The position numbers were made by a program, and so were the translations under genes. From Rhizophagus irregularis (lineage: Eukaryota), in the NCBI RefSeq assembly GCF_026210795.1, contig NC_089432.1, positions 806,001 through 870,000 on the forward strand: DNA of 64,000 nt, given 5' to 3'. Below the pieces are notes generated by a model, which was not told where the DNA came from, did no database searches, and was given only the letters and a program-made list of their open reading frames with translations. This document shows, piece by piece, positions 1,805 through 31,621 of this stretch. The number at the start of each line of letters is the position of its first letter. Within the stretch, counting starts at the first letter, position 1.

Positions 1805-4800
1805 TTAAATCATACAATCTTCAAAACTTTCACTAGCAAAACTAAGTAAGCCACTACAATCCAAGCAATCAGAGTTTTGATCTAAAATTTTGGTAGTTAA
1901 ACGGTTTGTATAATATGCTTGTGGACGAAATTGTATAATAGAAGTTTCAGTTTGTTCTTGCAATAAAGCTTTATTGGCTTTTACAAATTCTTCTATAACA
2001 TTTCTGTTTTGGTCCATATTAATACTAGTTATAGAATATTCACTATTTTCTTCATTCACTTCATAATATTCATTAACACATATAAGCCATTTAGATATAA
2101 TATTTTCAAGATCTCCTATAGTTGGTCTTTTAAAAGGGTCCGAATTCCAACATTTTTTCATTAAATCTATATAACATTTTGGAGTACTTTTTATAATTTC
2201 AGGACGTTCTCCTTCACAAATATCTATAATGAGTTGATGATCATGTACTTTATTATTAAATGGAGGAACACCTGACGTAAATTCCCACATTATCATTGAG
2301 AAGCTATAGATATCACTTGCTTGAACATAAGGTTGGTTTCTTAATGCTTCAGGTGCTATATACGGTATAATTCCATAAATTTTGTCAATTTCATTTTGTA
2401 ATGAGTCTTTTACGAGTTTACACAATCCTAGATCAATAATATATGTTTCAAAATTATCTGATATTAAAACATTACCATCATGAAGGTCACAATGAATAAG
2501 ATTTGATTCATGTATTGTCTTAAGTCCCAAAATAATATTTTTTAGTAATTGTAATTTGTATTGCCATTTAATTTTAGCTATGTCAGATAAACATTTTCTT
2601 AAACTTCCTTTTTTTGCATAACTCATTACTATTATATAATTTAAATTATTTGGGTCTTGAGTAATCCCAAAAATTTGAATAAATTTTGAAAATGATTTTT
2701 TCTGACAATTATAATGATATTTCCACTATATAAGTGATTAAAAAAATCATTAGTTTTAATAAATAAAAGAAAAAATAAAATAAAATTTACCTCACTTAAA
2801 AATCTATCAAAATTTGATGAATTATTAAAACATTTAAGAACAACTTCATAATTTGGTAGCCTATTCCACTGTTGTTTATTAAAATTCCAACTATTAATAG
2901 GACCATCTAGCCAAATAGCTTTATGGATTTCACTAAATCCACCTTTATCATAATAACTAATATTTTTCAATCTATTATAAGATATCCACTCTAAAACTTC
3001 ATAACTATTTTTAGCATTTAGTTGTGCTTCTTGAATAAATTCATCAATAAACTTGTTTTTACTTGTCCAACTTAAAAAATATTGTTGAAATTGTCTAGTA
3101 TTACATTTTTGACACCAATAGTAATCAGTAAATGGTTGTTTACATTCTTTACATAATTTATTACCATAAAAATTTTTAAGAATTATTTTATCATTTTCTG
3201 CTACTTTTTGATACCAATAAAAGGCTTTTTCTAAATTCTTTTCCGTTCCTTTACCATCATAATAACATCTAGCTAAATTAATTTGTGATTCTTTAACACC
3301 ATTTTCTGCTGCTTTTTGATACCAATGAAAGGCATCTTTTAGATTCTTTTTTGTTACTGTACCATAGTAATAACTTAAACCTAAATTAAATTGTGCTTCT
3401 TTAACACCATTTTCTGCTGCTTTATAATCCCAATAAAAGGCCTTCTTTAGATCCTTTTTTACTCCTTCACCATTAGTATAACAACCAGCTAAACTGTTCA
3501 TTGCATATTTATTACCATTTTCTGCTGCTTTTTGATACCAATAAAAGGCTTTTTCTAGATTTTTTTCTGTTTCTTTACTATTTCTATAATAGTTGGCTAA
3601 AGTATATTGTGCATTTTCTTCACCATTTTCTGCTGCTTTTTGACGCCAATAAAAGCCTTTTTCTAAACTCTTTCCTGTTCCTATACCATTATAATAAAAT
3701 ATAGCTAAATTAATTTGTGATTCTTTAACACCATTTTCTGCTGCTTTTTGATACCAATAAAAGGCTTTTTCTAGACTCTTTTCTGTTCCTTCACCATGTT
3801 CATAATGTATGGCTAGATTAAACATTGCTTCTTTAACATCATTTTCTGCTGCTTTGTAATACCAGTAAAAGGCTTTTTCCAATTTTTTTTCTGTTCCTTT
3901 ACCAGTTTTAAAACAATTGGCTAAATCACATTGTGCACTTTTATTACCATTTTCAGCTGCTCTTTGATACCAATAAACAGCTTTTTCTAGATTCTTTTCT
4001 GTTCCTTCACCATTGTAAAAATGTGTAGCTAAACTATTCATTGCACTTTTATGATCATTTTCTGCTGCTTTTTGATACCAATAAAAGGCCTTTTCTAAAT
4101 TATTTTCTATTCCTTTACCATTTTTATAATATAAAGCTAAACTGTTCATTGCATTTTTATCACCATTTTCTGCTGATTTCTGAAACCAATAAAAGGCTTT
4201 TTCATGATTCTTTTCTGTTCCTTCACCATTGTAATAATGTATAGCTAAATTATGCATTGCATTTTTATTACCATTTTTTACTGCTTTTTGAAACCAATAA
4301 AAAGCTTTTTCTAGATTCTCTTCAATTCCTTCACCATTATAATAATGCATAGCTAAATTAGCCATTGCATTTTCATCACCATTATCTGCTGCTTTTTGAA
4401 ACCAATAAAAGGCTTTTTCTAGATTCTTTTCTGTTCCTTCACCATTATGATAACATGCAGCAAAATTAAATATTGCATTATCGTTACCATTTTCAACTGC
4501 TTTTTGACACCAATAAAAGGCTTTTTTTTGATTCATTCCTATTCCTTTACCATTATGATAACATTTGGCCAAACCGTTCATTGCATCTTTAGAACCATTT
4601 TCTGCTGCCTTTTGATACCAATAGAAGGTTTTTTCTAGATTTTTTTCAGTTCCTTTACCAGTTTTAAAACATAAGGCTAAATTATATTGTGCATTTTTAT
4701 TACCATTTTCAGCTGCTCTTTGATACCAATAAACAGCTTTTTCTAGATTTTTTTCTGTTCCTTTACCATTTGCATAATATATGGCTAAAATGTTCATTGC

Positions 4801-6399
4801 ATCTTTATCACCATTTTCTGCTGCTTTTTGATACCAATAAAAAGCTTTTTCTAGATTCTTTTCTGTTCCTTCACCATTTTTATAACATGCAGCCAAATTA
4901 AATATTGCATTATTATTACCATTTTCAACTGCTTTTTGACACCAATAAAAGGCTTTTTCTAGATTTTTTTCTGTTCCTCTACCATTTGCATAATATATGG
5001 CTAAAATGTTCATTGCGTCTTTATCACCATTTTCTGCTGCTTTTTGATACCAATAAAAAGCTTTTTCTAGATTCTTTTCTGTTCCTTCACCATTTTTATA
5101 ACATGCAGCCAAATTAAATATTGCATTATCATTACCATTTTCAACTGCTTTTTGACACCAATAAAAGGCTTTTTCTAGATTTTTTTCTGTTCCTTTACCA
5201 TTTTTATAATGTATAGCTAATTTATTCATTGCATTTTTATCACCATTTTCTGCTGATTTTTGATACCAATTATAAGCTTTTTCTAGATTCTTTTCTGTTC
5301 CTTCACCATTTTTATAACATTTAGCTAAATTAAATTGGGCACTTTTACTACCATTTTTTACTGCTTTTTGAAACCAATAAAATGCTTTTTCTAAATTCTT
5401 TTCTGTTCCCTTACCAATGTAAAAATGTGCAGCTAGGCTATTCATTGCACTATTATGACCATTTTCTGCTGCTTTTTGATACCAATAAAAGGCTTTTTCT
5501 AGATCCTTTTTTATTCCTTCACCATTTTCAAAGCATACAGCTAAATTATTCATTGCAACTTCATTACCATTTTCTGCTGCTTTTTGATACCAATGAAATG
5601 CTTTTTCTAGATTCTTTTCTGTTCCTTTGCCATATTTAAAACACATGGCTAAATTATATTGTGCACTTTTATTACCATTTTCAGCTGCTTTTTGACACCA
5701 ATAAACAGCTTTTTCTAGATTCTTTTCTGTTACTTCACCATCTTTATAACATATAGCTAAACTGTTCATTGCATCTTTATTACCATTTTCTGCTGCTTTT
5801 TGATACCAATAAAAGGATTTTTCTAGATTCTTTTCTATTCCTTTGCCCTTTTCATAATATATTGCTAAATTATATTGTGCATCTATATGACCATTTTCTG
5901 CTGCTTTTTGGAACCAATAAAAGGCTTTTTTCAAATTCTTTTCTGTTTCTTCACTATTGCAATAATATACAGCTAAATTGTATATAGCCTTTGTATTACC
6001 ATTTTCTGCAGCTTTTTGAAACCAATAAAAGGCTTTTTCTAGATTCTTTTCTGTTCCTTTACCATTTGCATAATATATGGCTAAAATGTTCATTGCATCT
6101 TTATCACCATTTTTGGCTGCTTTTTGATACCAATAAAAAGCTTTTTCTAAATTCTTTTCTGTTCCTTTACCATCTTCATAACATAAAGCTAAACTGTTCA
6201 TTGCATTTTTATTATTACCATTTTCTGCTACCTTTTGATACCAATAAAAGGCCTTTTCTAGGTTCTTTTCTATTCCTTTACCATTTTCATAACATGCAGC
6301 TAAGGCAAATTGTGCAATTTCATCGCCATTTTCTGCTGCTTTTTGATAGCAATAAAAGGTTTCTTTTAACAAATCAATATTAACACTTGAATCACTCAT
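1805..6399 (-). CDS. Sel1-repeat (~29 units) + protein kinase, about 1509 aa; exons 6399-2791 and 2725-1805
   Basis: The two track ORFs join through a 65-nt GT-AG intron (2790-2726), giving ...FLSE|WKYHYNCQ...IVMSYAKKG. 36-aa SLR units; kinase motifs DKGGFSEI, VVLK, HCDLHDGN, DLG, APE, DIYSF. Confidence 0.9.
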
Positions 6400-7639
6400 A
6401 TTAGTGAGACTGAGTTACTATTATTGAGGCAATAAGTTGTCAATTTAATAATTTTTTTTCATTTATTTGAATTTGGATTTCTTTTAATAATTAAGAATAA
6501 AAAACAATGTATAGTCCTTTATGTAATCCGTATATATATGGAAATTATATGTTTACATTTAGAATTAGGTTTGTGTAATGGCGTTTGATGTATCATGTGA
6601 GAATGTCACATTTATTCTTAAACATGAAATCCAGATTATCTGTGTAACAGGCATGCATCAGGAAGTCACGAGAAAAATGTTCATCACATGTATATTTTTG
6701 CATTATTTTAAATGTACATGTAATATTTAACGTTAATGAACATCATCAATGAGATTTTTATCAAATGGCACTGAGTGAATAAATTTATATGTATTTGAAA
6801 ATAAAATTTTAAATTAGCTTATAGGTGCGGTCGGAATTGCCAAATTGAAATTATGGCATTACGAAATATGGATTTTACCATTTAAAATATATAACAAAAC
6901 ATCAAGATTATCAGATTTACGGATTACAAATTATCTATGCCCATAATCAAAAAAAAATTTTACTTTCTTTGTGTAATTTTTGTATATTTGGCATTAAATA
7001 ATTATGACATTACGGCGATTTAATATATTACGGTATAAGCTTCATATGTATGGCAAGCCGAGTTGGACTAAACTATCAGGCATTGGGCGGATGAAAAATA
7101 AAGCATGGATTGACAAATGTTACACTGTGCCTGACATTTTATCTGTTGTAAGACCTAAGCCCGTATAACAATACGTTTGCCACCTTAGGACTTAACAAAA
7201 TAATACTTTATTAATAATATAAACAAATACAATATATGCTTGGTTTAACAATACTAAATATTATCCTAAAATAAATCTCTAAATTCGTATCCTAGAATTT
7301 AATCTTCAAATTAATTCACGAAATTCGTAACTTGAAATTTTATCAGTCAAATTTGGTTCCTTTTTGTATTTTTCTAACTCTTAGCAGCACCCATTCCTTA
7401 ACAATTCAAGTATACTTTCTTCATGTATCAACAATTACACAAATCCGTAGTTACTCCTTAAATTGATCATCAGAATTTTCTAAATTCTTAATTCCTAAAT
7501 TTACTAGTTTAACGTCATCTCGTAACGTTACATTTGTAACGTCATACAATTTTAAAATACTAAAAATTCATACACTAATTTTAAATACGACATTACCCTT
7601 CATAATTAATAAATTTACTAGGTATATTACGGCATTACA

Positions 7640-12675: not shown

Positions 12676-14043
12676 GTACATTATGAAATCAGCTGTAATA
12701 AATTTTGATATATACTGACTCAAATCTAGATCGAAGTAATTATGGAACCGAACCGGTTTTTTTTGTTTGACTTTGCTCACTCGTTTTTTCGATAGTATCG
12801 GTACTGAATCGAGCGAGTCATCCCATCCCTAATAATTAACCAATTACCAATCGAAACGCTTTATTAATTTTCTAGTTTATAATGTCTATTTTATTATCTG
12901 AGTTTACATTGCAATTTAATTTTGAAATTTTTTTTTTTGTAATAATATTAAAGAAATCATATAAAAAGTATGGCAGATATTCAACTTTTTTGCGAATATT
13001 TGTCATAAATGATCCATGAAACCAAAAATTCTCTGTAAATATTGTATCGATAATTAGAGAAAAATTTATAAAAAATAACATTAGTGATAATTATGATTAT
13101 TCATTATTAATTTTACTTGCGATATCTTTTTTAAAGATTATATATAAGAACATGTACCGGAACATTCATATAAATATTTATTTTTTATGAAAGTATCAAC
13201 AAATTTTGACATTCATCTTTCTCATCAATGCGCGAAAGAATAGATGAAATCATCAAAAAAATTTAAATTAATAACGAAATAAACACTTTTTTGCTGGGCT
13301 CCAAATATTCTTAACATTATTAATACGTGACTATAAACTTTAATGAGCTGTCACAGTTTAGAATCATAACCTGCCGTAATGTTGCAATCATTTACGACCT
13401 AAGTGTCATAAAACGTAATTATGTAACTTGCAATATGTAAGCTTGATTTACGGTTTCGTTAGTATTGCAATCCAAAATGTCGTAATTATTACTTACGGTC
13501 AGAAATCTTAGTTCAAAGGAATGCATAAATCAAAATCAGATTTTTTGATATTTACCAAATTGGAAATCATCTATTAAAAAATTATTGAAGATTGGCAATT
13601 CATACGATTTTCACCAATCATTTATTTTCCGAATTTTCGTTCATGAATATAACTATAGAAAATTAATCCTGCGGTTGGTAAGAATTATGGTTTCAAATAT
13701 TTGATTTATTAATTATTCTTACATACATGTATTTTTAAATTTTCTTTATTAACATTTTAATTTTGTAAGATAAATTCTTGATGTTAAAAGCGATTAAGAC
13801 GAAAAAAAACTCGGAAAATATCTGACGGGTAATCTATTTGATGTACATTGTATCTGTAGGTTTAAATCGATTACACGTGATTTTTCGTTACGTACTCATG
13901 TTACTCTCACTTACTATAAAAGATTGATCGGTGGTTGCGTACAAATGATTTGTACTACAAATAAATAATGAGCCCGTTCAAACAAAGATTTTCCTTTTCT
14001 CCCTTTATTTTCTGTAGGAATATTATTATTCACAAATTATAAA

Positions 14044-14790
14044 ATGCATTCTGTAAATAATTCAGATAATTCATTAACTCAATTTATTCAAAATTCTTAT
14101 AAAATCGATATAAAAGAAATAGAACCTACAATTCAAAATATTAATAAAAGTATATATGAAGATTATAGTACTTTAATTAATGAATTAGTTGATATTTATT
14201 TTAAAGCAGCTAATAAAGGAAAAGAAGAAGATATAAGAAAACAACAAATTCTTGATTATATAAATACTTATGAACTAAATTTACAAGAAATATATAATTG
14301 GCTTTTAAATACTCAAAATGATTCTAATTCAACTTTTTTACTTGGATATTTTTATTTTTATGGTGTTGGAACTAAAATCAATAAACAAAAGGCATTTGAA
14401 TTATATAAAAAAGCGGTAGAATTAGAACATATTGCAGCACAATTAGTTCTTGCTGATATATATGTACATGGTAAGGGACTTGAGAAAAATCATAATAATG
14501 CTTTTTATTTAGCTAATAAACTAGCTGAAGAGGAACATTTAGCTGGAATAAATATGTTAGGATATTGTTATGGTTGTGGAGTTGGAACTGATATTAATAT
14601 GGAAAAAGCATCTGAATTATATAAAAAGGCAGCAAATTTGGGAAATAGTATAGCTCAATATAATATAGCTTTGTTGTATGAATATGGAAAAGGAATTGAA
14701 CAAGATTTGGATCAAGCTATTTATTGGTATAAAAAATCTGCTGAACAAGGATATCAATATTCTCAAAAAAAATTAGAAATATTGAATTGA
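14044..14790 (+). CDS. Kinase-less Sel1-repeat protein, 248 aa
   Basis: Intact ORF; family N-terminal motif IQN..KI..KEIEPT.QNIN..IYED; about 4 SLR units. Confidence 0.9.
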   Translation: MHSVNNSDNSLTQFIQNSYKIDIKEIEPTIQNINKSIYEDYSTLINELVDIYFKAANKGKEEDIRKQQILDYINTYELNLQEIYNWLLNTQNDSNSTFLLGYFYFYGVGTKINKQKAFELYKKAVELEHIAAQLVLADIYVHGKGLEKNHNNAFYLANKLAEEEHLAGINMLGYCYGCGVGTDINMEKASELYKKAANLGNSIAQYNIALLYEYGKGIEQDLDQAIYWYKKSAEQGYQYSQKKLEILN

Positions 14791-15152: not shown

Positions 15153-16163
15153 ATTGAATGTATTTATCCCATATTTATGTCGTTAAAAATTGCTTTAAAA
15201 ATTGTATGAATTTTAGTATATTATAAATATATGGTTAGCGCACTAATTATTAATAGTTTTTGATATCCAATAATATTTGTTTACTAGATATTATTTTATT
15301 TCCTCCTTAGTAAAATTCATCGGATATAGGATATATTGATTAATGGGTGAATTAAATTTGCTACATGAAATTATAATCTTCTGGACATACAAGTTCATAC
15401 TGGAACCTTTTACATTATTTTCAAATTTTGTTTTTATGTAGATAGATATTTGAATATTTGAATATCAGTTAAATAGTTTTTGTTATAATTATTATACTCA
15501 GTTGTATACTACAGTATTTCAGATAAATATTATCATATATAACTCCTTTATAATAAATTACTACTTTTATCGACCGTTCATTCAAGAAATTTGAAATTTT
15601 GCTACACAATATATCATACAAATATACTTTGCAAATTAATTACAATTTTTTTTTCTACGAAAAAAAAAGTCAATATCTTACGATTGATCTAATATCTCAT
15701 TGAATTTATATTTTCTCAAAATAGTATGATACAGATTTTCAATGTGAATTGAATTGTAAATACTGTATATGGAAATCATTTAACTGACCGAATATAAAAT
15801 AAAATATTTAATAATTTGTTGCATGTATATAATGACATGTAGTTATTAATGATATTGTAAATAAAAATCAAATTTATTGATATGTTGAATTATTCAAATT
15901 ACAAAACTAAGAAACTTGTAATACATTTTACTACTCTAGCCTTAGTGTTTAAATAATCCTAAAAAAGAGAATACATATTGGATAAATCATAAAAAAAAAG
16001 AATTATTTAAATTACATACTAAGAAATTTGCAAAATATTTTACTACTCTAGTCTTAGTGTTTAAATAATTCTACAAAAAAAAACGAATAATCTCTGTTTA
16101 ATGTATAATACCATAATATCAAATATCACTTAAAAAGTGTTGTAAATTTTTTAAAAATTCAAA

Positions 16164-19100
16164 TTAATTTTCATCTATTTTGATTTCTAAATAATTAAAT
16201 AAACAAATTACATCACATAAAATAATTGTGAATAAATACTTCTTTGTACATACAGTATTATATACATACCAAATGACTCCATATCATTAATTATATAATC
16301 ATCCAAATTTTCACTTTCTAGAATTCCATTCAATTTTCCACTAGTAAAATTAAGTAAGCGACTTGTATAATATGCTTGTGAATGAAATTTACTAGTATTG
16401 AGATTGCTACATCCAATTAAATTTGAAGTCAAAGGGGTACCATTAAGTGCTGAATCTGGTGTAGCTGATGATACTGGGGGTGCATCTATAAATTCCATAA
16501 CATTGCGTTTTAACTTTCATTAATATCTTTAATTTTCTTCCCATTAGGAATCATGATCCATTTTTTAATAATATCTAATACTTCTTCAGATGATGGTCTT
16601 TTTAATGGATCTTCATCCCAACACTTTTTCATCAAATCTACATAACATTGTGGAGTACTTTCAATAATTTCAGGACGTTCACCTTTACAAATACTTAAAC
16701 TAAGTTGAATATCATGTGCTCTATTATTAAATGGTGGAACTCCAGATGTAAATTCCCACATAATCATAGAAAAACTATAAATATCACTTGCTGGAGTATA
16801 AGGTTTTCCTCTCAAAACTTCAGGTGCCATAAATGACATCACACCATATAGCTTATCTTTTAAAAAAGATTCTGCAGGTTGACATAATCCTAGATCACTA
16901 ATATAAACTATATCCACTTTATTTTTTTGATTTTCTTTATTGTTATTATCATTCTTTTCATTTTTTTTATTATTATTATCCTCTTCATTTTCTTTATTAT
17001 CATGATCATCTTCATTTTCTTTCTTATCATCATCCTCTCCCTCATTATTATCATCCACTTCATTTTCTTTATTATTATCATCCACTTCATTTTCTTTATT
17101 ATTATCATCTACTTCATTTTCTTTATTATTATCGACTTTATTATTAACATCCTCTTTATACTCATGAAATAAAATATTACCATCATGAAGGTCGCAATGA
17201 ATAAGCTCTTGTTCATGTATTTCATTTAGCCCAGAAATAATTTGATACAAAATATATAATTTTTGTTTCCAATTATTTTGAATGATTTTTGTTAAATTTC
17301 CTCTTAAATTACCTCTGTTTGCATAATCCATTACTACCATATAATTTGAAGTATCTGGATCTTTTGTAAATCCATATAAATAAATAAAATTATATGAAAT
17401 TGAACAAATTATATGGTATTGCCACTATAAATATAAATTTAATATATTAGTATAAATAAATTATAGCTAAAATAAAAAAATAAATAATATATTATCATAC
17501 TTCTTTTAAAAATTCATTTAAATTTTCATTCAAATTATCAAGACATTTAAGAACTACTGTTTTATCTTTACGCTTATCTGACAAAATAGCTTTATATATA
17601 GTACTAAACCCTCCTTTATCAAGATATTCAACATTTTTAAATTTATTATAAGGAAACCATTTTAATCCCGTATGAAAAATAAATCTATCTAAAACCGTAT
17701 CTCCGCTTTCTCCTAATCTGCAAATTTAAACGAAGGTAGTCAAAATTTATATTAAAATCAAATTAAGAGAAAAAATAATACTAATACTTACTCTTAAATT
17801 TAAATAGAAATTTAAAAATTTAATATGATTTTAATATATATGTTGTGCCTCAGATCGATTCTTGCCTCAGATTGAAGCTCACGCACCTCACATTGAGATT
17901 GTCACCTGACGCACCTCATTTGAATCATTCAATAAAGTCTGTTATAAGTAAACTTTTTTTCTCATTAATTAAACCACTTTTTGTAACATAAACAAACTTG
18001 TGCACCATAACGAGTTACATGTTTCCTGAAATATTTATGTAAATCCAATTTATATTGAAGTTTATATTTGTGTTTTATCTGAAAAATCATTAAATTTTAA
18101 GTCATTTTTCAAATGAAAAGATTTAATAAGTATGATTCCAATTAATCTGAAATTATAGGATTGTATACTTAAAATAATGATAAATAAGTTTACTTAGTAC
18201 TTAAAAATACATTAAAATTGGAAATTTTGATGTTTAATTATAGCACATTTTTATTAGCAATTGAGGTGCGTCAGATGACAATCTCAATCTGAGGTGCGTG
18301 AGCTTCAATCTGAGGCAAGAATCAATCTGAGGCACAACATATATAATATATAATAACCTACAGTATATATAATTTAGTGTAACTTACCAACTAAATTAAT
18401 TGTCCAATATTTTTTTTAAAAAAATAATAAAATCAATTAATAAAAGTCGTAAATAAATATTGCAAAATATGTAATAATAAACTTAAATAGTGAACTTATA
18501 ACTTACAATCAAAAGTAAAAATATTATAATTTTTTTAAAAAAAGTTTTTGTTAAATTACATGTAATTATTATATAAATTAAATATATAACATTAAATTAG
18601 TAAATTTCTCACTCTCTATATCGTCAAATAATTATTTAAATAAAGTTTAGATAGTAAAAATTAGTACATGTAATTATATAGTTGTAAAAAATTAAATTAC
18701 AACTTACTAACTATAATAACTTGCCAAGTAATAAATAATTTTGTTAGTTTAGAGATCACATACATATATAATTAAAATAAAATAATTAACTTACTCCTTA
18801 TAATATTGAATAATTCTATACAAAAGTATATTTAGTAAATTATATAAAAACATCATATAAATTTATTATAATAAATTAAGATTAATAACTTACTCCCTAT
18901 TATTATGAAATAAAAAATTTAGTTAATAATATATAAAATATATACACAATAAATTAAATAACTTACACCCTAATTATTTAAATAAGAATGTGATTAGTTT
19001 AAACTTTAAAAACTTTAAATAATTATTACATAAATATATAAATAATAATAATAGAATTAAATAAATAACTTACGTCCTATAGTATTAAGTAGTTTTTTAA

Positions 19101-22100
19101 TTATAAATTTTAGTAAGTTTGAATTTATAATAACATTACTAAATAAATAACTTACTCACTATAATTTTATAAATAAAATTTTAGTTTATATTATATGCAA
19201 ATATTATATAGATATGTAAAGTAAAATTATAATTTAAAATGATAAAATTAAATAAGTAACTTACTTCCTATTATTAGATAATTGTTTAAATAAAGAGTTT
19301 AGTATTTTAATTTTTAAATTTATATAAATATCATAAATGAATAATAACAGAATTAAAAAACAATAGCTTACCCGCTATATTATTAAATAGTAATTATTTA
19401 AATAAAATTGGTTAATTTATACATATTATATAAATATTAAATAATCATTAGTAAATTGTAAAAAATTTGGTTAATTAAATCATATTAATAATATTATAAA
19501 ATAACTTATAACTTACAAGCTAAAATATAATGAAAAAATTAAAATTTAATTAGCTTAAACTATAAATCAATATTAATTAAATGACTAATTTATAACTTAC
19601 ATTCTATATTATTAGGTAATTTTTAAATAAAAATTTAATTAGTTTAAATTATAAAATATATAATAGTGGAATAAAATAAACAACTTACTTGCTATATTAT
19701 TAAATAATTTTCGAAATATTTAAATTATATAATTATTATATACTATACTGTAGTAAATACAATAACAGATTAAATATATAACTTACTCCCTAATTATTAA
19801 ATGGTAATTTAGATAAAAATTTAGTCAGTTTAATTCATAGTTAAATATTATTATATAAATTCAATATATAATTATAGAATTAATAACTTACTAACTATAA
19901 ACAATTTATTTATAAATAAAAGAATTAGTTATTTTATATAATAGTAAAATTAAATAATAATTTATGACTTACAAGCTAAGATTATAAATCATATTTTAAT
20001 TAGTAGTTTAAATTATAAATAAATGTTACACAAATGTGTAGTAATGTAATTAAACAAACAACTTACATGCTATTATTGAATAATATTTAATAAAATTTAA
20101 TTAGCTTAAACTATAAATAACTATTAATTAAATGACTAATTTATAACTTACATTCTGTATTATTAGGTAATTTTTAAATAAAAATTTATCAGTTTAAATT
20201 ATAGAATATATAATAGTAAAATAAAACCAACTTACTTGCTATAGTATTATTAAATAATTTTCAAAATATCAAATATTTTAAATTATATAATTATTATTAT
20301 TATATATACTGCAGATTAAATATATAACTTACACCCTAATTATTAAATAGTAATTAAATAAAAATTTAGTCAGTTTAATTTATAGTTAAATATAATAATA
20401 TAATGTGTAATAATAAATAACTTACACCCTAATTATTAAATAATTATTTAAATATTAAAATTAATTACACATAAATATCATATAAATATGTATAAATAAT
20501 TAAAAAAATAAATAACTTACACTCTAATTATTAAATATAAAATTTAAATTACATGTAAATGTTATATAAATGTGTAATAATAAAATAATATATAAATAAA
20601 AAACCAACTAGTTAGTTTAAATTATATGTATATATTAATAATTTATAATAATAAAATAAATAAACAATCAACTTACTTCCTATTATTGTATGTATTATCA
20701 GGTAATTATTTAAATAAAGAATTATAAAGAATTTAGTTTGTTTAAATTATATAAGCATATTTCAACTTAATTGTTTGTTTAATATATGGATTTACTGAGA
20801 GTTTTAGGAAAGGGTAGTTTCATTAAATGTATTAAATAAAACGAATGTAATAAAATTTTGGAAATTTTAGAAAATTTTAGAAATTGTAATTTAAAATTAA
20901 AGGGGCATTTTAATCATATAATATTATCAAAATTTGAGGAGTGGTATTTGTTAAACAAGCAATTAAGTTGCCTATATAATGTGTAAATATGCAATGTCAT
21001 AAATTAAATGAATAACTTACTTCCTATGTTTAAAATAATTTTTTAAATAAAATTTGATAAATTTAAATTTTATATAAATATACGTGTATAATAAAAACTT
21101 ATAGTTTACCAGTACCTTTATAAATTATTAAATAATTATAGTAAATTGTATAAATATTATACAAATAAACATAAATTTAATATATAACTTACAAGCTGTA
21201 ATAAATTACCATATAGTTAATTAAATAAAGAATCTAATTAGTTTAAATGATATGTATTATTTAATTATATAATAATAGAATAATATAAATAGTTTATAAC
21301 CTACCATCTATAATGAATTAAGAATTAAATTAATTGAAATTATGTAATAATATTATATAATTATAATATCATGATTAAATAAATAGTTTATAACCTACAA
21401 GCTATAATGAATTAAAAATTTAGTTAGTTAATAAATTATTTATAAATATTGTATAATTACATAATAATAGGATTAAATAAGTAGTTTATAACCTACCAAC
21501 TATAATGAATTAAGAATTTAGTTAATTAAAATAATATATAAATATTACATAATTATATAATAATAGGATAAATAAGTAGTTTATAACTTACCAACTGTAA
21601 TAAATTTAATAAATAAAGAATTTAGTTTGAATTATTTGTAAATATTGTTACATAATAATAGACTAAATAAATGGTTTGTAACTTACAAGCTGTGGTGGAT
21701 AAAGAATTTGGTTAATAAGAATTATATGTAAATATATATAATTAAATAATTTATGACTTACCAACTATAATAAGTTATCAAATAATTATAAAAATAAAGA
21801 ATTTAATTAATTAAAATAATATGTAAATATTGCATAGCTATATGATAATAAGATCAAATAAATAATTTATAACTTACCAGCTATAATAAATAAAGAATTT
21901 ATATTAATTAAGATAATATATAATTACTGTATAATTATATAATTATAAAATTAAATAAATAATTTATAACATACCCACTATAATAAATAAAGAATTTGGT
22001 TAATTAAATTTATTTATAGATTATATAATATTATAATTAAATAATTTATGACTTACTAGCTATAGAAAATTACCAAATAATTATATAAATAAAGAATTTA

Positions 22101-25100
22101 GTTAACTAAAATAATTTGTAATATTGTAATAGGATTAGATAAATAATTTATAACTTACCAACTATAACAATAACCAAACAATTATATAAGTAAAGAATTT
22201 AGACAATTGAAATAATACATAATTATTACATAATTAGGCAATACAAACTTAATTTTTCAGTTCTCATATCCCAGCTGGATGGGTCAGTTTCTGTTAAATC
22301 TCAAAAAAAAAATTTTTATATTATTATTATACCAGATAAGGTTTTATAAAAGTTAAAAAAAAATCAAAGCCAGGTTGCCAGGTTATGTCGTGTTATGAGA
22401 ACCAAAAAATTAAGTTTGCATGACTTATAGGATTAAATAAGTAATTTATAACTTACCAGCTATAATAAATAAAGAATTTATGTAAATTAAAAAATATGCA
22501 ATTTTATAGGATTAAATAAGTAATTTATAACTTACCAGCTATAATAAATAAAGAATTTATGTAAATTAAAAAATATGCAATTATCATATAATAATACAGT
22601 AATTTGTAACTTACGATCTATATTATTAAATAATAAAATTAGTCAGATTTACTTAATTAGATCATATAAATATATAATAATAAATTAAATAAATAATTTA
22701 TATAACTTACAAACTAAATGACAAGGTTAAATGAAAAATTTAGTTAATCAAAATAATTATATAATTATATAATAATAGTATTAAATAATTTATAACTTAC
22801 CAACTATAATAAATAAAGAATTTGGCTAATTAAGATTGTATGTATATATTGCATGATTATATAATAATACAGGATTAAATAAATATGACTTACTCCCTAT
22901 AATAAATAAGGAATTTATGTGGTGTAAAAGGATCGATTAGATCAATAACAGATTTGGCTACCGTTTTTTTGTGGTAAATAAATAGTTTATAACTTACAAA
23001 CTACAATAAATTACCAAAAAAAAAAAAAAATGGTGATTTAAAATACAAATATACAGTATAATAACAGGATTAAATGAATAGTTTATAACTTACAAACTAT
23101 TATAAAATACCAAATAATTATATAAATAAAGAATTTAGTTAAAATTATTTGTAAATATTATAATAATAAGATTAAATAAATAATTCATAACTTACCAACT
23201 ATAATAAATAAAGAATTTAGTTAATTATAAATTATATAAATTATAATTATATGTAAATATTATATAGTACCAGAAGTCTATACTTGCATAAAATTTAAAG
23301 AAATAAACTGGTGCTTTCTTCTACAAGACGAGTACTATTATATTACCAGTCAGATTTCAAAAAATGACTACATAAAAGTTATAAGTATTTAAAATATGTT
23401 GATTTTTATATAATCAGCTTAAAATCATGTGATTTCAATTTTATTTAGCCAATATTTTTTAATGACATTTATTTATTGAATACCATTCTAAGGCTTAAAA
23501 CATTCCAATATTTAAATTCAGCTTATTATCAGTTTGATTTTCTGAAACAGATGCCAAAACTGTTGCAATCTTATGATAATTTTTTTGCCAATTTCCTTTT
23601 TATGCTTGATTGTTATACTTTTCATATAAAATTGTGGATTTTTATTGGCCAATTTTTTACTCACATGATGGATTAGAAATTTGAAACATTGTTAAGTATA
23701 GACTTCCAGCACCATAATGATAAGAATAGAATTAAATAAGTAATTTATTAACTTACTTTCTGTAGTAATTATCAGAAATAAAAATTTAATTAAACTTATT
23801 ATATGTAAATTTATTTATATATAAGTTTAAATAAATAATTTATAACTTACCACCATCTATAATAAATATATAAAGAATTTGGTTAATATAACTATTAAGC
23901 AAATATATGCAAATATATAAATTTAATAATGTAATTAACAGAGGTGCAAACTTTACTGACATAACTGCCATAAAAAAGCTACGACAATATGCTTACATAG
24001 AAATTTATAATAATTTATATAATATTAAGCTACATCACGAGTTCCAACCTTTCATTAGTGATGTAGCTAAAAAAAGAAAAAGTCTGCACCCCTAGTGATT
24101 AAATAAATAACAGGTTTTGTTTTTTATCACACCCGCAATATATCACACCCATATAAAAGTCAAATACAGCATTCTAAACCCTTTGATATACTAAGTAAAA
24201 TTGTAAAGCAGGCAAAAATAAGCATACTATATGGTTTTTTAAGTGTTACAATAGGTACATAGTTTTTGCGCCAAAAATGTGAAAAATTTTTGGCTAAGAT
24301 CGGCAAAGATTGGCATATTCATTATATAAAAATTGCCAAAAGGGAGCGTATCGCATATGCAAAAAAAATTAAATCCATAATAATAAATTAAAATAAATCA
24401 CTTATATAACTTACCAGCTATAATAATAAATCACCAATTTCATAAATAAAGAATTAAAATAATTAACATTATATGTAAATATCAAATAAATAAATATGTC
24501 ATAATAACATTAAAATTAACTTACCATCTGCATTTTTAAATAATTTAAAGAATTAAGTTAGTTAAGATTATTTGTAAATTCTGTATAATAAATTTGTATA
24601 TATTAACTTACAATCTATAATAAATTACATAAATAAAGAATTTAGTTAATTAAATGTTATATCATTACATAGTAATAGAATTAAATAAATAATTTATAAC
24701 TTACAATCTATAATAAATTACATAAATAAAGAATTTAGTTAATTAAATGTTATATCATTACATAGTAATAGAATTAAATAAATAATTTATAACTTACAAT
24801 CTATAATAAATTACATAAATAAAGAATTTAGTTAATTAAATGTTATATCATTACATAGTAATAGAATTAAATAAATAATTTATAACTTACAATCTATAAT
24901 AAATTACATAAATAAAGAATTTAGTTAATTAAATTATATGTAAAGATTACATCATTACATTAAATAAAATTAAATAAATAACTTACTCCCTATGATAAAA
25001 TAATTGTATAAATATAATTAAATTATATGTAAATATTATTTAAATATAATAAAACAATTTATATCTTACATACTATATTATTTATTATTAAATAATTTTT

Positions 25101-28100
25101 AAATAAAATTTAGTTAGTTTAACTTAGTATATATAATTATTTTATAAATATATTATAATAGGATTAAATAATAACTTATAACTTACATACTAATATATTA
25201 TAAATGATTATAAATAAATAAATTGTTAGTTTAGTAGATCATATTTAATTATATAATAGATATAACTTACCGACTATAATAAATTACCATATGAATAAAG
25301 AATTTAGTAATTATAAATATCATATAAATAAATATACAATTATAACTTACATGCTATATTATTAAATAATTTTTAAATAAAAAATTTAGTTAGTTTAAAT
25401 TATATATTAATTATATGATGATAAAGTTCAATATAACAATTTTAACTTACCAACTAGTAAATAATAAATTAATGTTTAAATTATATATAATTATACAATA
25501 ATAAAGTTCAATATAACAATTACAACTTACCCGCTATAATAAATTAACAAATAATTTTTGATTAAGGATTTAGTTAGTTTAATTATATATAGATATATAT
25601 ATATAAATATGAAATGAAGGAATTTTAACTTACTAACTATAATAAAGTAGTTCCAAATAATTTTAATTAAAGAATTTAGCTTGGACCATTAATTATGTAA
25701 ATGTCTAATAATAAATTTGAATAACTTCTACTTACTAACTACAATCAAATAACAAGTAATTTTTAAATAATATAGTTAGCTTATATTATATGTAAATATC
25801 TTACAAATATTAATTATCGAATAATAAATAAATAATTTCTAACTTACTTGCTATATTATTCATATCATTATTAAACAGTTTTAAATAAGGATTTTAGTTA
25901 GTTTAAATTATATGTAAATCTTATACAAATGTTTAATAGTTAAATAAATAATAACTTATATATAACTTACAATCTATAATAAATTAACAAATAAATTATA
26001 AGAGTTAACTTAGTTTAAATTATATAAAAATATTATATAATTATCTAATAATAAATTTGAATAGTAACTTCTACTTACAAATTATAATAAATTAATAAAT
26101 AATATATTAGCTTTATATTATATGTAAATATCACCCCTGTAAAAAATCTGATCCGTGTTTGTTTTTTCCGTGAATGTATCATTTTCACGGAATTTTTACG
26201 GAAGACACGATACATCAATTGGAATTATAGCGATAATTTATTATTGAGAAATAATGGAAATATTCGGATAAAAATTTTTTATAGGGCACACAAATATGAA
26301 TATGAAATTAATAAATAAATAATTTCTAACTTACTTGCTATATTATTTATATATTAACAAATTTTAAAAATAAAGATTATAGTTAGTTTAAATTATATGT
26401 AAATATTATAAGCATATATAAATATTAAATAACTTATATATAACTTACGAACTATAGTATAATTAAATATATTTATAAAAAAAGAAATTAGTTAGTTTAA
26501 ACTGCATTATTAATAATTATAAATATAGATTAAATAAAAATTTATAACTTACCGACTATAATAAATTTTAAATAATATAATTAATTTATATGTAAGTATT
26601 ATGCAAATATGTAATTTATAAAAGTAACAAATAAATAATTTCTAACTTACTAGCTATAATAAACCACCAAATTTAAAGAATTTAGTTAGTTTAATTTAAT
26701 ATATATATATAAGTATAAAAATAAAAATAATGTGAACTTACTAACTGTAATAAATTAATACCATAAATTTAATTGAAGAATTTAGTTTGTTTGATTGTTT
26801 TTATATAAAAGTCTAATAATAAAATTAAATAAGTAATTTATGGTGGCTTACCCCCTACAATAAAAATAATTTTATAAAAAAAGAATTTAGATAGTTTAAA
26901 CTTTAAACTATAATAATTATTATATAAATATATAATAATAAGGTTAAATAAATTTACTTACAACCTAAAATAAATTATCAAGTTTAGTTGCCTTAATTGT
27001 ATATAAATATCATATAAAAGTATAATAATAAAATTAAATAAATAATTTATGGCTTACAACCTATAATAAATTATCAAATAATTTCACAAATAAGAAATTT
27101 TGTTAGTTTAAACTAAGTAATTATTATATAGGTATATAACAATAGGATTAAAGAATAACTTACGATCTAAAATAAATTAACAAATAAAAATTTAGTTCGT
27201 TTATGTACTAATTGTTATAATAATTAATAATAAATATAAACAAATAATTTATAACATACCATCTATAATAAATTACCAAATATATAATATTATAAATAAG
27301 TGAATTTAATTAGATTAAATCATATATTAGCATTATACAAGCTCTAAATATGTCTTATCAGGTTGAGACTAAAATATTGGGTTATAGGTTAAACCAAGTT
27401 TATCACAAATAAATAAATTACTTACTTCCTACATTAATAAATAATTTTAAAGAATTTTGTTAATTTAAATTGTGTATAGATATTATAACAAATGCATAAA
27501 AATAAAAAAAATAAGCAACTTACTCTCTATTTATTAGATAATTAATCAAGTAAATAATTCAGTTAGTTTAAAAGCTTATATTATACTGCTATAATAAAAA
27601 TATGTAGCAATTAGACTAAATAACTTATAACTCACTTGTTAGGCCTATTAAATAATTTTTTTCAATAAAAATTTGGTTAATTAAATTATATGTAAATATC
27701 TTATAATAAAATTAAATGAGTAATTACGTACTATATTATTAAATAAATATTTGATAAAAAATTTGATTGATTAATATTATGTATGTTATATAAATATGCA
27801 ATAATAAAATTAAATAAATAACTTACTTTTTCCTAATTTTTAATAAGAAAATTGTTAATTTTAAATTATTATATACATGGATATAATATAAAGATGTAAT
27901 AATGAAATTAAGTAAGACTTACTTCCTACTATATTATTCGATAATTTTTTAAATAGAGAATTTAGTTCATATATATTGTATAAATATATGATAATGGAAT
28001 TTAAAACTTACTCCCTATATCATTGGATAATTTTTAATTAAGGAATTTGGTAATTTAGATTATGTATATAATTGTATAAAATAATTGAATAAACAATTTA

Positions 28101-29489
28101 CTTTCTACATTAAAGAATTTTTAAATAAGACTTACTTCCTATTTTATTAAATAATTTTCAAATGTTAGTTTAAATCATATTGATAAAATTGAATAAATAA
28201 ATTGTGACTTACCAACTATAATAAATTATCAAATAATTTTAAATTATAGAGTTAATATATAAATTATATAAATATGCAATAATAAAATTAAATAAATAAT
28301 TTGTAACTTACAGTCTAAATCAAATTACCAAAATAATTTTATATAAATATTATATAAATATGTAATAATAAAATTAAATAAATAGTAATTTATGACTTAC
28401 AACCTAAAATAATTTACCAAATTAATTTTTTATTAGTTAGTTATATGTGAATATTATAATATTAGAGTAAAATAAATAACTCACTCTCTACATTATTAGA
28501 TAATTTTTTTTGAATGAAAGAATTCAGTTAGTTTAAGTTATTTACAATATATGTGGTAGAATCAAATAAATAACTTACTCTCTATAATATTTCAATATTT
28601 TTTTTAAAATTTGGTTAATTTAAGTTATTTAAGTATATAATAATAGAATTAAATAAATAACTTATAACTTACTCTCTACATTATTAAATAATTCATTTTT
28701 AAATAAAAAACTTAGTTAGTATACAATATAGACTGAATATTGTATATAATAGAATTATGTAACTTACCAACTAAGTATTTACCAAATAATTTTGATTAAA
28801 AATTTAGTTAAATATATAAATAATAATAAAAGCATAAACAACCTATAACTTACACCCTATAATATTATTGATCGTTAATTAACTAGACGTAAATATTATT
28901 ATAAAAGTATATATAATTAAATTATAACTTACAATCTAATTTTAAATAAAAAATCAAATTAGTTTGAATTAAACGTGGATATTATATAAATAAAATACAC
29001 ATGAGTATAATATATCCTACCTTCTATAATATCATTAATCATTTAATGATTATTTGAACATGAAAGTTAATTATTTCATTTGAATATCATATAAAATGCA
29101 TTAAAAAAATAAATAACTAATAACTTACTAACTATAATTTTAAATTATTTAGTCATAAATATAAAAAATATTGTAAGTAATTCAACTATTATTCAAATTG
29201 TAAGATGACCAATTATTGACTTACGAGCTAAAATATTTAAATAAAAATAAGTTAGTTCCTATTATTTGTGTATATCACATAGAATTAAGAAACTTTTAAT
29301 TCATAAATATATTTGAATTACAGCTTGTATAGCAAATTATATTTACCTTCAGATTCCATAGCGCCGCTTGAATCTAGTTTTATTATAATATTGCAAATTT
29401 ATTACAAAATTTTAAAATAATTATATAATTCTAATTTGTATTATACATTCATGTTATATTCTTTTACCTTCATCATTTCTATGAGCCAT
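16164..29489 (-). CDS. Predicted two-TM membrane-anchored protein kinase with ~95 microexons. Exons: 29489-29468, 29373-29347, microexons 29227 to 17792, 17717-17501, 17424-16510 (stop as sequenced); ancestral tail continues in another frame to 16270 plus last exon 16186-16164
   Basis: Manual splice: MAHRNDEDSSGAMESEALKDWFEKKSYFGKRRRKIRLTKRNDRCWVTIVP(IY/N)SIITVAFVLWNYYYYADGEIVFWIVYPAVAMAVAFVAYACTGRKWWSKSSFRTKSSGMRRWIKIELGESGDTVLDRFIFHTGLKWFPYNKFKNVEYLDKGGFSTIYKA... then VVLK, HCDLHDGN, DLG, APE. The kinase exons are well supported; the microexon joining is inferred. Confidence 0.75.
16920..17160 (-). repeat. 30-nt coding tandem repeat making an N/D/E/K-rich insert in the kinase domain
   Basis: NKENEVDDNN-like units lie between HCDLHDGN and the DLG motif. 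Confidence 0.85.
17837..18343. mobile_element. MITE with ~85-bp TIR, intronic
   Basis: TATATGTTGTGCCTCAGAT...GACGCACCTCA versus TGAGGTGCGTCAG...TGAGGCACAACATATA, flanked by TA runs. Confidence 0.85.
20763..20970. mobile_element. MITE, intronic
   Basis: CAACTTAATTGTTTGTTTAA versus TTAAACAAGCAATTAAGTTG. Confidence 0.65.
22235..22427. mobile_element. MITE, intronic
   Basis: CAAACTTAATTTTTCAGTTCTCATA versus TATGAGAACCAAAAAATTAAGTTTG. Confidence 0.7.
23265..23714. mobile_element. MITE, intronic
   Basis: TAGTACCAGAAGTCTATACTT versus AAGTATAGACTTCCAGCACCA. Confidence 0.7.
23939..24094. mobile_element. hAT-type MITE, intronic
   Basis: CAGAGGTGCAAACTTT versus AAAGTCTGCACCCCTA; near-perfect 8-bp TSD GTAATTAA/GTGATTAA. 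Confidence 0.7.
24605..24960. repeat. 93-bp tandem repeat (4 copies) of one intron+microexon unit
   Basis: Microexon at 24612, 24705, 24798 and 24891 with essentially identical intervening sequence. Confidence 0.9.
26135..26286. mobile_element. Small MITE, intronic
   Basis: CCCTGTAAAAAAT...ATTTTTTATAGGG termini; higher GC than the flanks. Confidence 0.6.
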
Positions 29490-31621
29490 TATTATATATT
29501 TCTTTCTAAAAGAAAGCGTATATTTATTAAACGAATATGAATATGGGTATTTATATAGTTATTTGGGATAGTTATTTGGGTAGTACCAAGTATTCAGGTT
29601 ACAGGGTTACAGCCAGATTTACTTAATACAGTAAGAATGTATTACAAACAAGTGCAATTATGTTGATCAACAATCAACACAAAAAATTGCATTGCGTGAC
29701 AAAAAAAAAATAACATGAAGCTTTGGTATGCTAAGTTTTATTGAAATCTTCAAAACATAAAACCATCAATACTATTTCTAAATGGGTCACTTCTCATTGG
29801 TTGTAAATTAAATTTCGATTATTAAATTTAAATGATAATTTCATAATTATTTGATATCTATGGTTTTAGAATTAAGTGAACGAAAAATAATTAACTATTT
29901 AAACGGGTTCTTACAGATTATCATAAGGTATGTAGTACTGTATTTTCAGTAGGCAGAAAACAAAAAAAATAGCAATCCAGTTATTTTAATAATACAGAGA
30001 ATCAAAATTTGTGATATAAGAACTGAAGTAAAATTATTAAGTTATTTTGTTTTTTATTTATTTTTTTTTGCAAACAGGAACATACTGTATATATCATGTA
30101 TTTTATTATTTAAATTTATATAGAATTTCATTATTAAAAAATTTTTACCTTTATAAAATAATAATATTAAGAAGGCACATAATTGAAATTAATATATTCC
30201 AGCTACGGATCGTCCTTTGTCGTCGATGATCCATTAAATGACTTTTTCTGTCGATCAAAAATTTTCAAGTTGAAAAAAAAAGAAGAGTTATATGTGTTTG
30301 TTTGTTCTATTTACAAAATTACCCGACGAAAATCTATATAAAGTATAATAAAGGAATGACAACATCTGGATGCAATAATGAGCGAAGAAGAAGTTCGGAA
30401 AAACAAAAGGAACAAAAAGGGATACAAGATCAGCAAGTGTAACAAATATCAGATCTATCTAAAGTTTTTACGAAGTAAGAAGGCGATTTTTGGCTTGTAG
30501 TGTTTAACTTGGTGAGAAAAATTTCGATTTTCGTAGTTTACTGTGGGTGGCGCAGCAAAGAAAGAGAAGTTCAACATGGCGGCAAAACCAAAAAAGAAGG
30601 TTGTATGGATAGAAGAACGAATTAAATTTTAGAAAATGAGGTTCATCGATATTTTTAACAAAGTTATATTAAGTTTATCAAACAGTTTAGAAGCTTAAAA
30701 ATATTCTCTATTTTAGCTATTGAAGAGGTTTTCGAAGTAGACGGAGACAAAAATTTAGCTGACGATCTGCGGCGGACACGAGAATTTCGAAGATCGAATT
30801 TTGTAGATCGGTGTTCGCCTTGCTTATGGAGCCTGTATGGAAACGACGGTTAAAGGTCATGCGACCAAGTCATTTCTGTATATTTGGTAATTACATTGAT
30901 TGTTTTAGCGTTTAGGTTAGTTGAAAAAGGCCGAGTAGTTATTTGGTACGTGGTGTTAGCCTAGTCTGTTTATTTAATTGGAATGTGGTTTAGTTAGTTT
31001 TGTTTGGATAAAGTTTTTAGCCACGAAAGTGGTACTTTATCACATGAATGATTTGTCTTCTTACGTCAAAGTCATTGGGATCAATGTTCCATTTTTCCCC
31101 GGTGAAAGAAATATAAGTTCGCCGTAAATATTAATAATTTTCTATTTTTTAAAAAAAAATTTATAAATAATTCAAAGATAATTTATTATTTTTCCAAAAT
31201 TATTTAAAAAAAAAATTTTAAAAGAACAGACTTTTTGCTGTGCCTCGATATTCTTAAAATTATCTTTACGACATTAAAACCTAAATGGACTGGCACAGAT
31301 AGAATCATAACAATCAGGATTGCCAAAGAATGCACAAGAGCAAGTCGAATTTATTGAAATTAATAAAACATTTTTCTGAAGGTTGACTCACCAACCATTT
31401 ATTTTCCCGTTCGTAAATAAATATTACTGCGGTACTGCAGAATGCTGCCGCAGGAAATTAATGTAAATCATCTAAACTATAATTGGTGATCAACTACTGT
31501 CGTACTACATTCGCTCAAATGAAATATGCTGTGGCTGAGAAAATCATTTCATTATATATTTACTTTTCCGATACTTCTATAGAAAAATAATAAAACAAAA
31601 ATAAAAATACAATAGAATAGA

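Follow-up and report, generated by a model that had tools for sequence, protein, structure and literature searches.

In Schistosoma, micro-exon genes encode secreted proteins in exons of 6–36 nucleotides (nt) and diversify them by skipping, and introners or introner-like elements are families of similar introns, tandem genomic duplication being a route of intron gain. The NACHT-ankyrin (nank) genes of Tuber carry tens of alternatively spliced codon-sized exons, as described in three papers (PMC4986451, PMC10197012, PMC13449251); codon-sized exon arrays are in themselves already known. Rhizophagus is reported to possess 2,533 kinases (PMC10234402), and searches of that paper's text found no “microexon”; it also describes a Nanopore set of long RNA reads of R. 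irregularis. We analyzed 64,000 nt of the Rhizophagus irregularis genome (contig NC_089432.1, positions 806,001 to 870,000; hereafter “the window,” numbered from its first letter), which contains on its minus strand an array of about 95 exons, nearly all three bases long, ahead of a kinase. Our preferred interpretation, to which we assign a probability of about 0.68, is that these ∼95 exons are spliced in order to yield a two-helix membrane anchor with a short loop that fronts a tyrosine-kinase-like protein and grows by tandem copying of exon-intron units.

Like the Tuber nank genes, the array consists of tens of consecutive 3-bp exons (here 90 AG-flanked ones) in an expanded fungal signaling or non-self-recognition family. 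It differs from them in its host, a member of the Glomeromycotina, and in its partner: no NACHT or ankyrin open reading frame (ORF) lies beside the array, and the matching public protein model, P0121, hits kinase families only. The window array also lies N-terminal to the kinase, comprises ∼95 units and is read in phase 1, whereas a nank-like locus described below (L106) is in phase 0; furthermore, selection appears to favor its in-order splicing, and its predicted product includes membrane helices. Whole-codon exons separated by phase-0 introns are not what we find: the start exons, the avoidance of stops, the choice of codons, and the junctions to kinase exons all give phase 1. The window gene is not a nank gene, but works alike in design. 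With the Schistosoma genes it shares a makeup of mostly very short, frame-keeping exons, but its exons are of 3 nt, no signal peptide is seen in the hydropathy profile, and a kinase is attached. Unlike introner-like elements, which are dispersed in unrelated genes, the copies in the window are adjacent, carry the exon along, and are locus-specific within the loci compared. The downstream exons, 100% identical to P0121, place the gene among the expanded Rhizophagus tyrosine-kinase-like kinases (PF07714), whose public models lack the array-encoded front end. In the literature outside subscription journals, we found no report of such arrays in Glomeromycotina or arbuscular mycorrhizal fungi; the novelty lies in the lineage and the size of the array, in its split-codon phase and kinase partner, in the membrane anchor predicted for it, and in evidence that points to variation at the DNA level rather than in splicing.

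The array itself is located as follows.
18388..29227, minus strand: microexon array of 97 exon-intron units spanning 10.8 kb, with 300 exonic nt and a median intron length of 93 nt

An annotation made earlier from the letters of this DNA (the original prediction) had placed the array, with ∼95 introns, at 19500–26450; the array is real and extends further on both sides. Of its 97 units, 90 have AG-flanked exons of 3 nt, three have exons of 6 nt, and the other four are triplets whose acceptors have decayed; the donor is GTAAGT in 81 of the 97. An acceptor-donor spacing of 3 nt occurs in 89 pairs on the minus strand, compared to six or fewer for any other spacing of 1–12 nt and two on the plus strand, and a three-donor pattern has 28 matches in the window versus none in 100 shuffles. 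We trained a weight matrix on 76 strict sites, which recovered 91 sites at 18390–29227 and just two marginal matches elsewhere in the window, and added six further units manually where gaps were double-length. The AG and GT are conserved around variable triplets. At least half of the words of 17000–26900 are present in 15 of 24 listed sequencing runs from several studies, so the array DNA is real; none of the listed runs containing 17000–26900 is on record as RNA. Several array introns contain insertions of 160–470 bp with a higher G+C content (23860–24410, 23200–23750, 22165–22450, 20685–21015, and 26085–26330), which are likely small mobile elements.

The reading phase of the array is fixed as phase 1 by two predicted upstream exons.
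29468..29489, minus strand: predicted exon 1, beginning with ATG, 22 nt, phase-1 donor
29347..29373, minus strand: predicted exon 2, with a length of 27 nt and both ends in phase 1; paralog models show an ES[KE] end that matches it and then a G-initial residue

A second upstream ATG with a phase-1 donor at 29915–29924 represents a possible alternative first exon. In phase 1, a 3-nt array exon completes one codon with its first two bases and opens the next with its third, and none of 75 neighboring exon pairs with normal introns contains a stop (4.4 expected, P = 0.002). Phase 0 has one stop among the 75 window pairs, and phase 2 is ruled out by stops in 5 of 75 window pairs and in 18 of 101 pairs from a metagenome set. 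Codon usage fits the genes of the window best in phase 1 (0.32 bits per codon, compared to 0.03 and −0.52). The metagenome set came from a pattern scan that found at least 110 loci, considered together with one viral-contig match, a single simple repeat that we rejected. Among the 111 listed loci, 66 were dropped as closely spaced (mostly TAA-type microsatellites) and 45 with intron-like spacing were kept, from which 16 AT-rich loci were chosen; L003 gave no pairs, leaving 15 for analysis. L010 and L083 show one invariant triplet each and may be plain tandem repeats. In these independent arrays, 15 loci among the matches listed, phase 1 is again free of stops (0 of 101 neighboring pairs, 4.7 expected within loci, P = 0.001). 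Base composition and the kinases found beside some of the arrays suggest that the AT-rich loci belong to Glomeromycotina.

The predicted peptide contains two hydrophobic segments, as judged from hydropathy.
24987..27060, minus strand: exons for predicted hydrophobic segment 1, residues 40–58, mean hydropathy 1.45
21193..23759, minus strand: exons for predicted hydrophobic segment 2, residues 67–87, peak hydropathy 2.06

By hydropathy alone, these would be membrane segments ahead of the kinase. They lie between basic stretches in an order that is matched by only 1 of 1,000 shuffles of exon order (p = 0.002). The first 35 residues are hydrophilic and the loop spans ∼9 residues; the peptide shows neither the signal peptide nor the large ectodomain of a receptor-like kinase architecture.

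Because the exons straddle codons, a duplicated exon creates a stop in 3 of 93 cases and a skipped exon in 5 of 91; the claim of the original prediction that single-residue length changes are frame-safe is mostly correct, but not wholly so, as an exon here is not a whole codon. The rate of stops after skipping equals the base rate of 5.6%, while neighbors are stop-free, suggesting that selection acts on neighbors rather than on skips and pointing to in-order splicing. This bears on a different function for the array, namely combinatorial alternative splicing as in Tuber nank, with DNA duplication supplying the raw material. There is precedent in the nank papers (PMC4986451, PMC10197012, PMC13449251), 86 of 91 single skips leave the frame open, and weak and decayed sites are present; yet stops have been purged between neighbors (0 of 75) and not across skips, and random skipping would damage the ordered two-helix pattern. 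We regard it as decidedly unlikely to be the main function of the array, although it is compatible with in-order splicing of an anchor and the two are not mutually exclusive.

Downstream of the array, on the same strand, lie the exons of a kinase.
17832..18348, strand not assigned: MITE-like insertion (miniature inverted-repeat transposable element) located in the final intron of the array, with terminal inverted repeats of ∼90 bp
17794..17796, minus strand: last donor before the kinase, with a candidate 1-nt exon (17794) or a 3-nt exon with a decayed acceptor
17501..17717, minus strand: first large kinase exon, with acceptors giving a start at 17717 (phase 2) or 17712 (phase 1)
16510..17424, minus strand: main exon of the kinase (PF07714/PF00069), carrying an acidic insert and matching R. 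irregularis P0121 at 100% identity

P0121 is, by its source naming, a kinase of Rhizophagus irregularis DAOM 181602/197198; it scores above the curated cut-off for PF07714/PF00069, and the public model begins inside the MITE. The array likely encodes not a free two-helix protein but the front of the kinase: a kinase exon follows it on the same strand, and the layout is repeated elsewhere. The original prediction had overlooked that the array likely lies inside a tyrosine-kinase-like gene. Three models of the junction keep the frame. One contig of run X19 (RNA by guess) agrees with 17626–17712 with no mismatch and departs at the phase-1 acceptor with 86 letters unplaced, and a contig of run X20 skips the intron at 17425–17500; for a link between array and kinase this is a weak hint. 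Searches for transcript-derived proteins across the junction yielded none: two short matches turned up, and none of 28 examined among 150 representatives spanned it. The candidate 1-nt exon at 17794 would convert phase 1 to phase 2, and in 20 of 58 paralog models the upstream part terminates with SK, CK, GK, or RK, as it would had a gene finder read through N-GTAA. Within the kinase domain, an acidic insert of ∼80 residues is formed by a 27-bp repeat (16925–17170), with a 6-nt length variant in the X19 and X20 contigs. The tail of the kinase is lost by a frameshift just past the domain (16510–16516), which is also present in P0121, while paralogs keep the tail.

The arrangement of an array followed by a kinase recurs in the metagenome set. 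Among the matches listed, the array joins a kinase exon in phase 1 over an intron of 74–102 nt at L005, L014, and L044 (identified by tblastn) and at L076 (by translation), and L031 has a kinase-like exon below the curated cut-off shortly after the array; eight of the 15 AT-rich arrays stop at or near a contig end. Public protein models provide a second connection. An exon-1-like start of the MA[LHY]xN[DN] type occurs in 11 of 388 stored proteins, all from kinase searches; Pfam kinase families are matched by 10 of these 11, and a twelfth motif match, P0117, is an unrelated protein and was rejected. We used this motif count since the BLOSUM score of exons 1 and 2 against N-termini did not exceed background (null maximum 28). 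In P0152, a microexon-like stretch is translated in phase 0 between the exon-1-like start and the kinase, and the FG[KT]SG[ND] subfamily comprises 58 kinases that have no common annotated N-terminus.

Several observations weigh against an in-order, membrane-anchored kinase. Phase 0 is nearly open too (the single stop in the window, none in the metagenome set), and stop-like triplets are scarce as exons (2 of 215, compared to 16.7 expected), as are other triplets beginning with TA or TG; a rival donor formed by such a triplet and the acceptor's G may explain the scarcity of all of these exons, stop-like ones included. Among seven AT-rich loci with downstream DNA, L015 and L040 show no kinase. 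At L005, L044, and L076, hydrophilic partial chains adjoin the kinase, and the membrane anchor may therefore be particular to the window locus or lie further upstream in the others. The link from array to kinase crosses the MITE and an ambiguous junction, with the end of the X19 contig at 17712 leaving the upstream splicing undefined. The predicted array peptide has no match among 120 stored proteins in a local search (best E = 0.14). Finally, an open frame requires one weak exon.
21110..21115, minus strand: weak 6-nt exon, AAG acceptor and GTAAAC donor; skipping it yields the sole in-frame stop

The strong sites alone lead to a stop right after helix 2, and the MITE from within which P0121 starts separates the array from the kinase. 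Both would fit an array that is coding but whose product ends after helix 2, with the weak exon skipped, or forms a separate small two-helix protein, the kinase being transcribed alone. We consider this unlikely: ∼25 exons past the stop retain good splice sites and go on avoiding stops, the junctions of four other arrays with kinases are in the same phase, and paralog models link an exon-1-like start to the kinase.

There are likewise signs of decay, comprising the four decayed acceptors, several intron insertions, a 31-nt intron, and the kinase-tail frameshift, and no transcript of the array was seen among RNA-guess runs, which were compared with 15900–18395 only. These are what would be expected of a non-coding, splice-site-like satellite in a long intron or a dead gene, in which the 93-bp run described below could be an assembly artifact. 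Such an origin is highly improbable in light of the phase-specific stop avoidance in two independent data sets, the fit in codon usage, the order of the hydropathy segments, the AG and GT kept around variable triplets, and the presence of the DNA in runs of several studies.

Copying of units is directly visible within the array.
24604..24934, minus strand: exact 93-bp tandem repeat, 331 bp, 3.6 copies, with four ATT exons separated by three identical introns; Tyr run, residues 59–63
22425..22582, minus strand: exact 79-bp duplication with two CTG exons, inside hydrophobic segment 2
19510..19891 and 20060..20425, minus strand: block duplicate pair with a period of six units, 326 of 352 aligned bases identical
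25803..25953 and 26290..26438, minus strand: older duplicate pair, 131 of 143 aligned bases identical

The original prediction had noted all four. The ATT exons of the 93-bp repeat lie at 24612–24614, 24705–24707, 24798–24800, and 24891–24893 and, read in phase 1, give NYYYY; the halves of the 79-bp duplication (22425–22503 and 22504–22582) are identical; and both block pairs align, the best local alignment of the second covering part of the span first noted. The Tyr run directly follows helix 1, as expected if the newest expansion lay in the loop, but the equally exact 79-bp copy places an Ala inside helix 2, and this part of the prediction holds for the first repeat only.

The introns of the array also resemble one another. 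Their mean pairwise alignment score is 0.46 (87 introns of 60–125 nt), compared to 0.20–0.22 for shuffles and 0.20 against nine ordinary introns of equal G+C content, a small control group drawn from the window and three loci. Thus, within the limits of nine controls, the likeness exceeds what splice signals and AT richness provide, and the array introns are closer to each other than to other AT-rich introns. Against the arrays of five other loci they score 0.27–0.32, while those arrays score 0.65–1.39 within themselves, and the similarity declines with distance from 0.60 between neighbors to 0.41 at separations above 50 units (Mantel rho = −0.19, p = 0.001). This array-specific likeness, higher between neighbors, supports tandem duplication. 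No match to array introns was found in the window outside the array, and the nine ordinary introns are dissimilar. The common intron scaffold that had been proposed is best described as a family likeness, not a fixed string: its three pieces occur exactly in 7, 16, and 4 of the 87 array introns and in none of the nine ordinary ones.

Serial duplication of a single intron-codon cassette, as originally proposed, probably captures tandem unit copying, as reflected in the exact copies, the period-6 block, and the array-specific introns; multi-unit blocks have been copied as well, and gene conversion may have contributed. Per-site differences in the 28 unit pairs that are closest to each other amount to 0.51 in exons and 0.11 in flanks, the latter lowered by the choice of pairs on flank identity. 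Near-identical introns with differing triplets are also found at metagenome loci L014, L019, L076, and L106. This faster divergence of exons fits either fast triplet change after copying or homogenization of introns by conversion, and the data do not separate the two. An old protein whose introns became alike through gene conversion or insertion of one intron family, with duplication only a touch-up, would account for the roughly fivefold excess of exon over flank differences, and for a mean flank identity within the array (0.66) that is barely above that to other arrays (0.62–0.64). We nonetheless judge it very unlikely, as the exon is part of the exact copies, exons and introns recur jointly in the period-6 block, the whole-intron similarity is array-specific, and an intron after every third base would be hard to reach via independent insertions.

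Taking the preferred interpretation of an array-encoded anchor, the product would be a protein of ∼490 residues with a short cytosolic start, a helical hairpin with a nine-residue loop, a basic linker, and the kinase. Look-alike units would mispair, and unequal crossing-over or slippage would add units singly or in blocks, with the frame kept because each 3-nt exon sits between phase-1 introns. A new triplet would then change fast, or introns would be homogenized while selection holds the triplets, and acceptor decay would remove residues again. The role of such a system may be cheap variation, at the DNA level, of the sensing or localizing end in a large mycorrhizal kinase family, rather than random skipping. 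More tentatively, and as a reading somewhat less likely than not, a whole subfamily of arbuscular mycorrhizal kinases whose current annotations lack an N-terminus may be sensor kinases or anchored in the membrane, with variable front ends that are encoded one residue per exon by up to ∼100 split-codon microexons and tuned residue by residue through gain and loss of units, forming a hidden, fast-evolving recognition repertoire. If so, the inability of aligners and gene finders to place 3-nt exons would have left many kinase models of this model mycorrhizal fungus without a front end, and sensors with variable ends would make up some of the unexplained kinase expansion. The locus appears to show intron gain by tandem duplication under way, with exact copies beside aged ones, and raises the question of how the spliceosome handles ∼95 consecutive 3-nt exons.

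Three-base exon arrays in other genes were found in the same metagenome scan. At the nank-like locus L019 (2507–8261), 32 three-base exons come after a hydrolase-NACHT-winged helix-ankyrin gene; their introns of 80 nt are near-identical, and flanks differ at 0.05 and exons at 0.56 per site. L106 (1–3005) has ankyrin exons alternating with phase-0 runs of three-base exons, which is the Tuber nank layout, and L029 (3603–7520) carries a NACHT gene whose splice signals are of basidiomycete type and which has 31 three-base exons in a row at its C-terminal end. L065 and L048 (one gene) and L052 are GTPase-like with ∼35 terminal three-base exons that are hydrophobic in phase 2; the GTPase-like assignment reflects a P-loop recognized by eye, and two exons that we tested gave no Pfam match. 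The device is thus present in NACHT and GTPase-like genes of ascomycetes and basidiomycetes and recurs across fungi in signaling or non-self genes. Arrays of 10–38 three-base exons also occur in contigs of higher G+C content (L017, L021, L036, L045, L046, L053, L104, and L111).

The window as a whole is AT-rich and contains many Sel1-repeat and kinase ORFs. Sel1-repeat genes and Sel1-kinase fusions cluster around the array (2641–6414, 13972–14790, and 32735–61921), and ORFs judged by eye to be FAR1/MULE-like transposases lie near 55884–58628.

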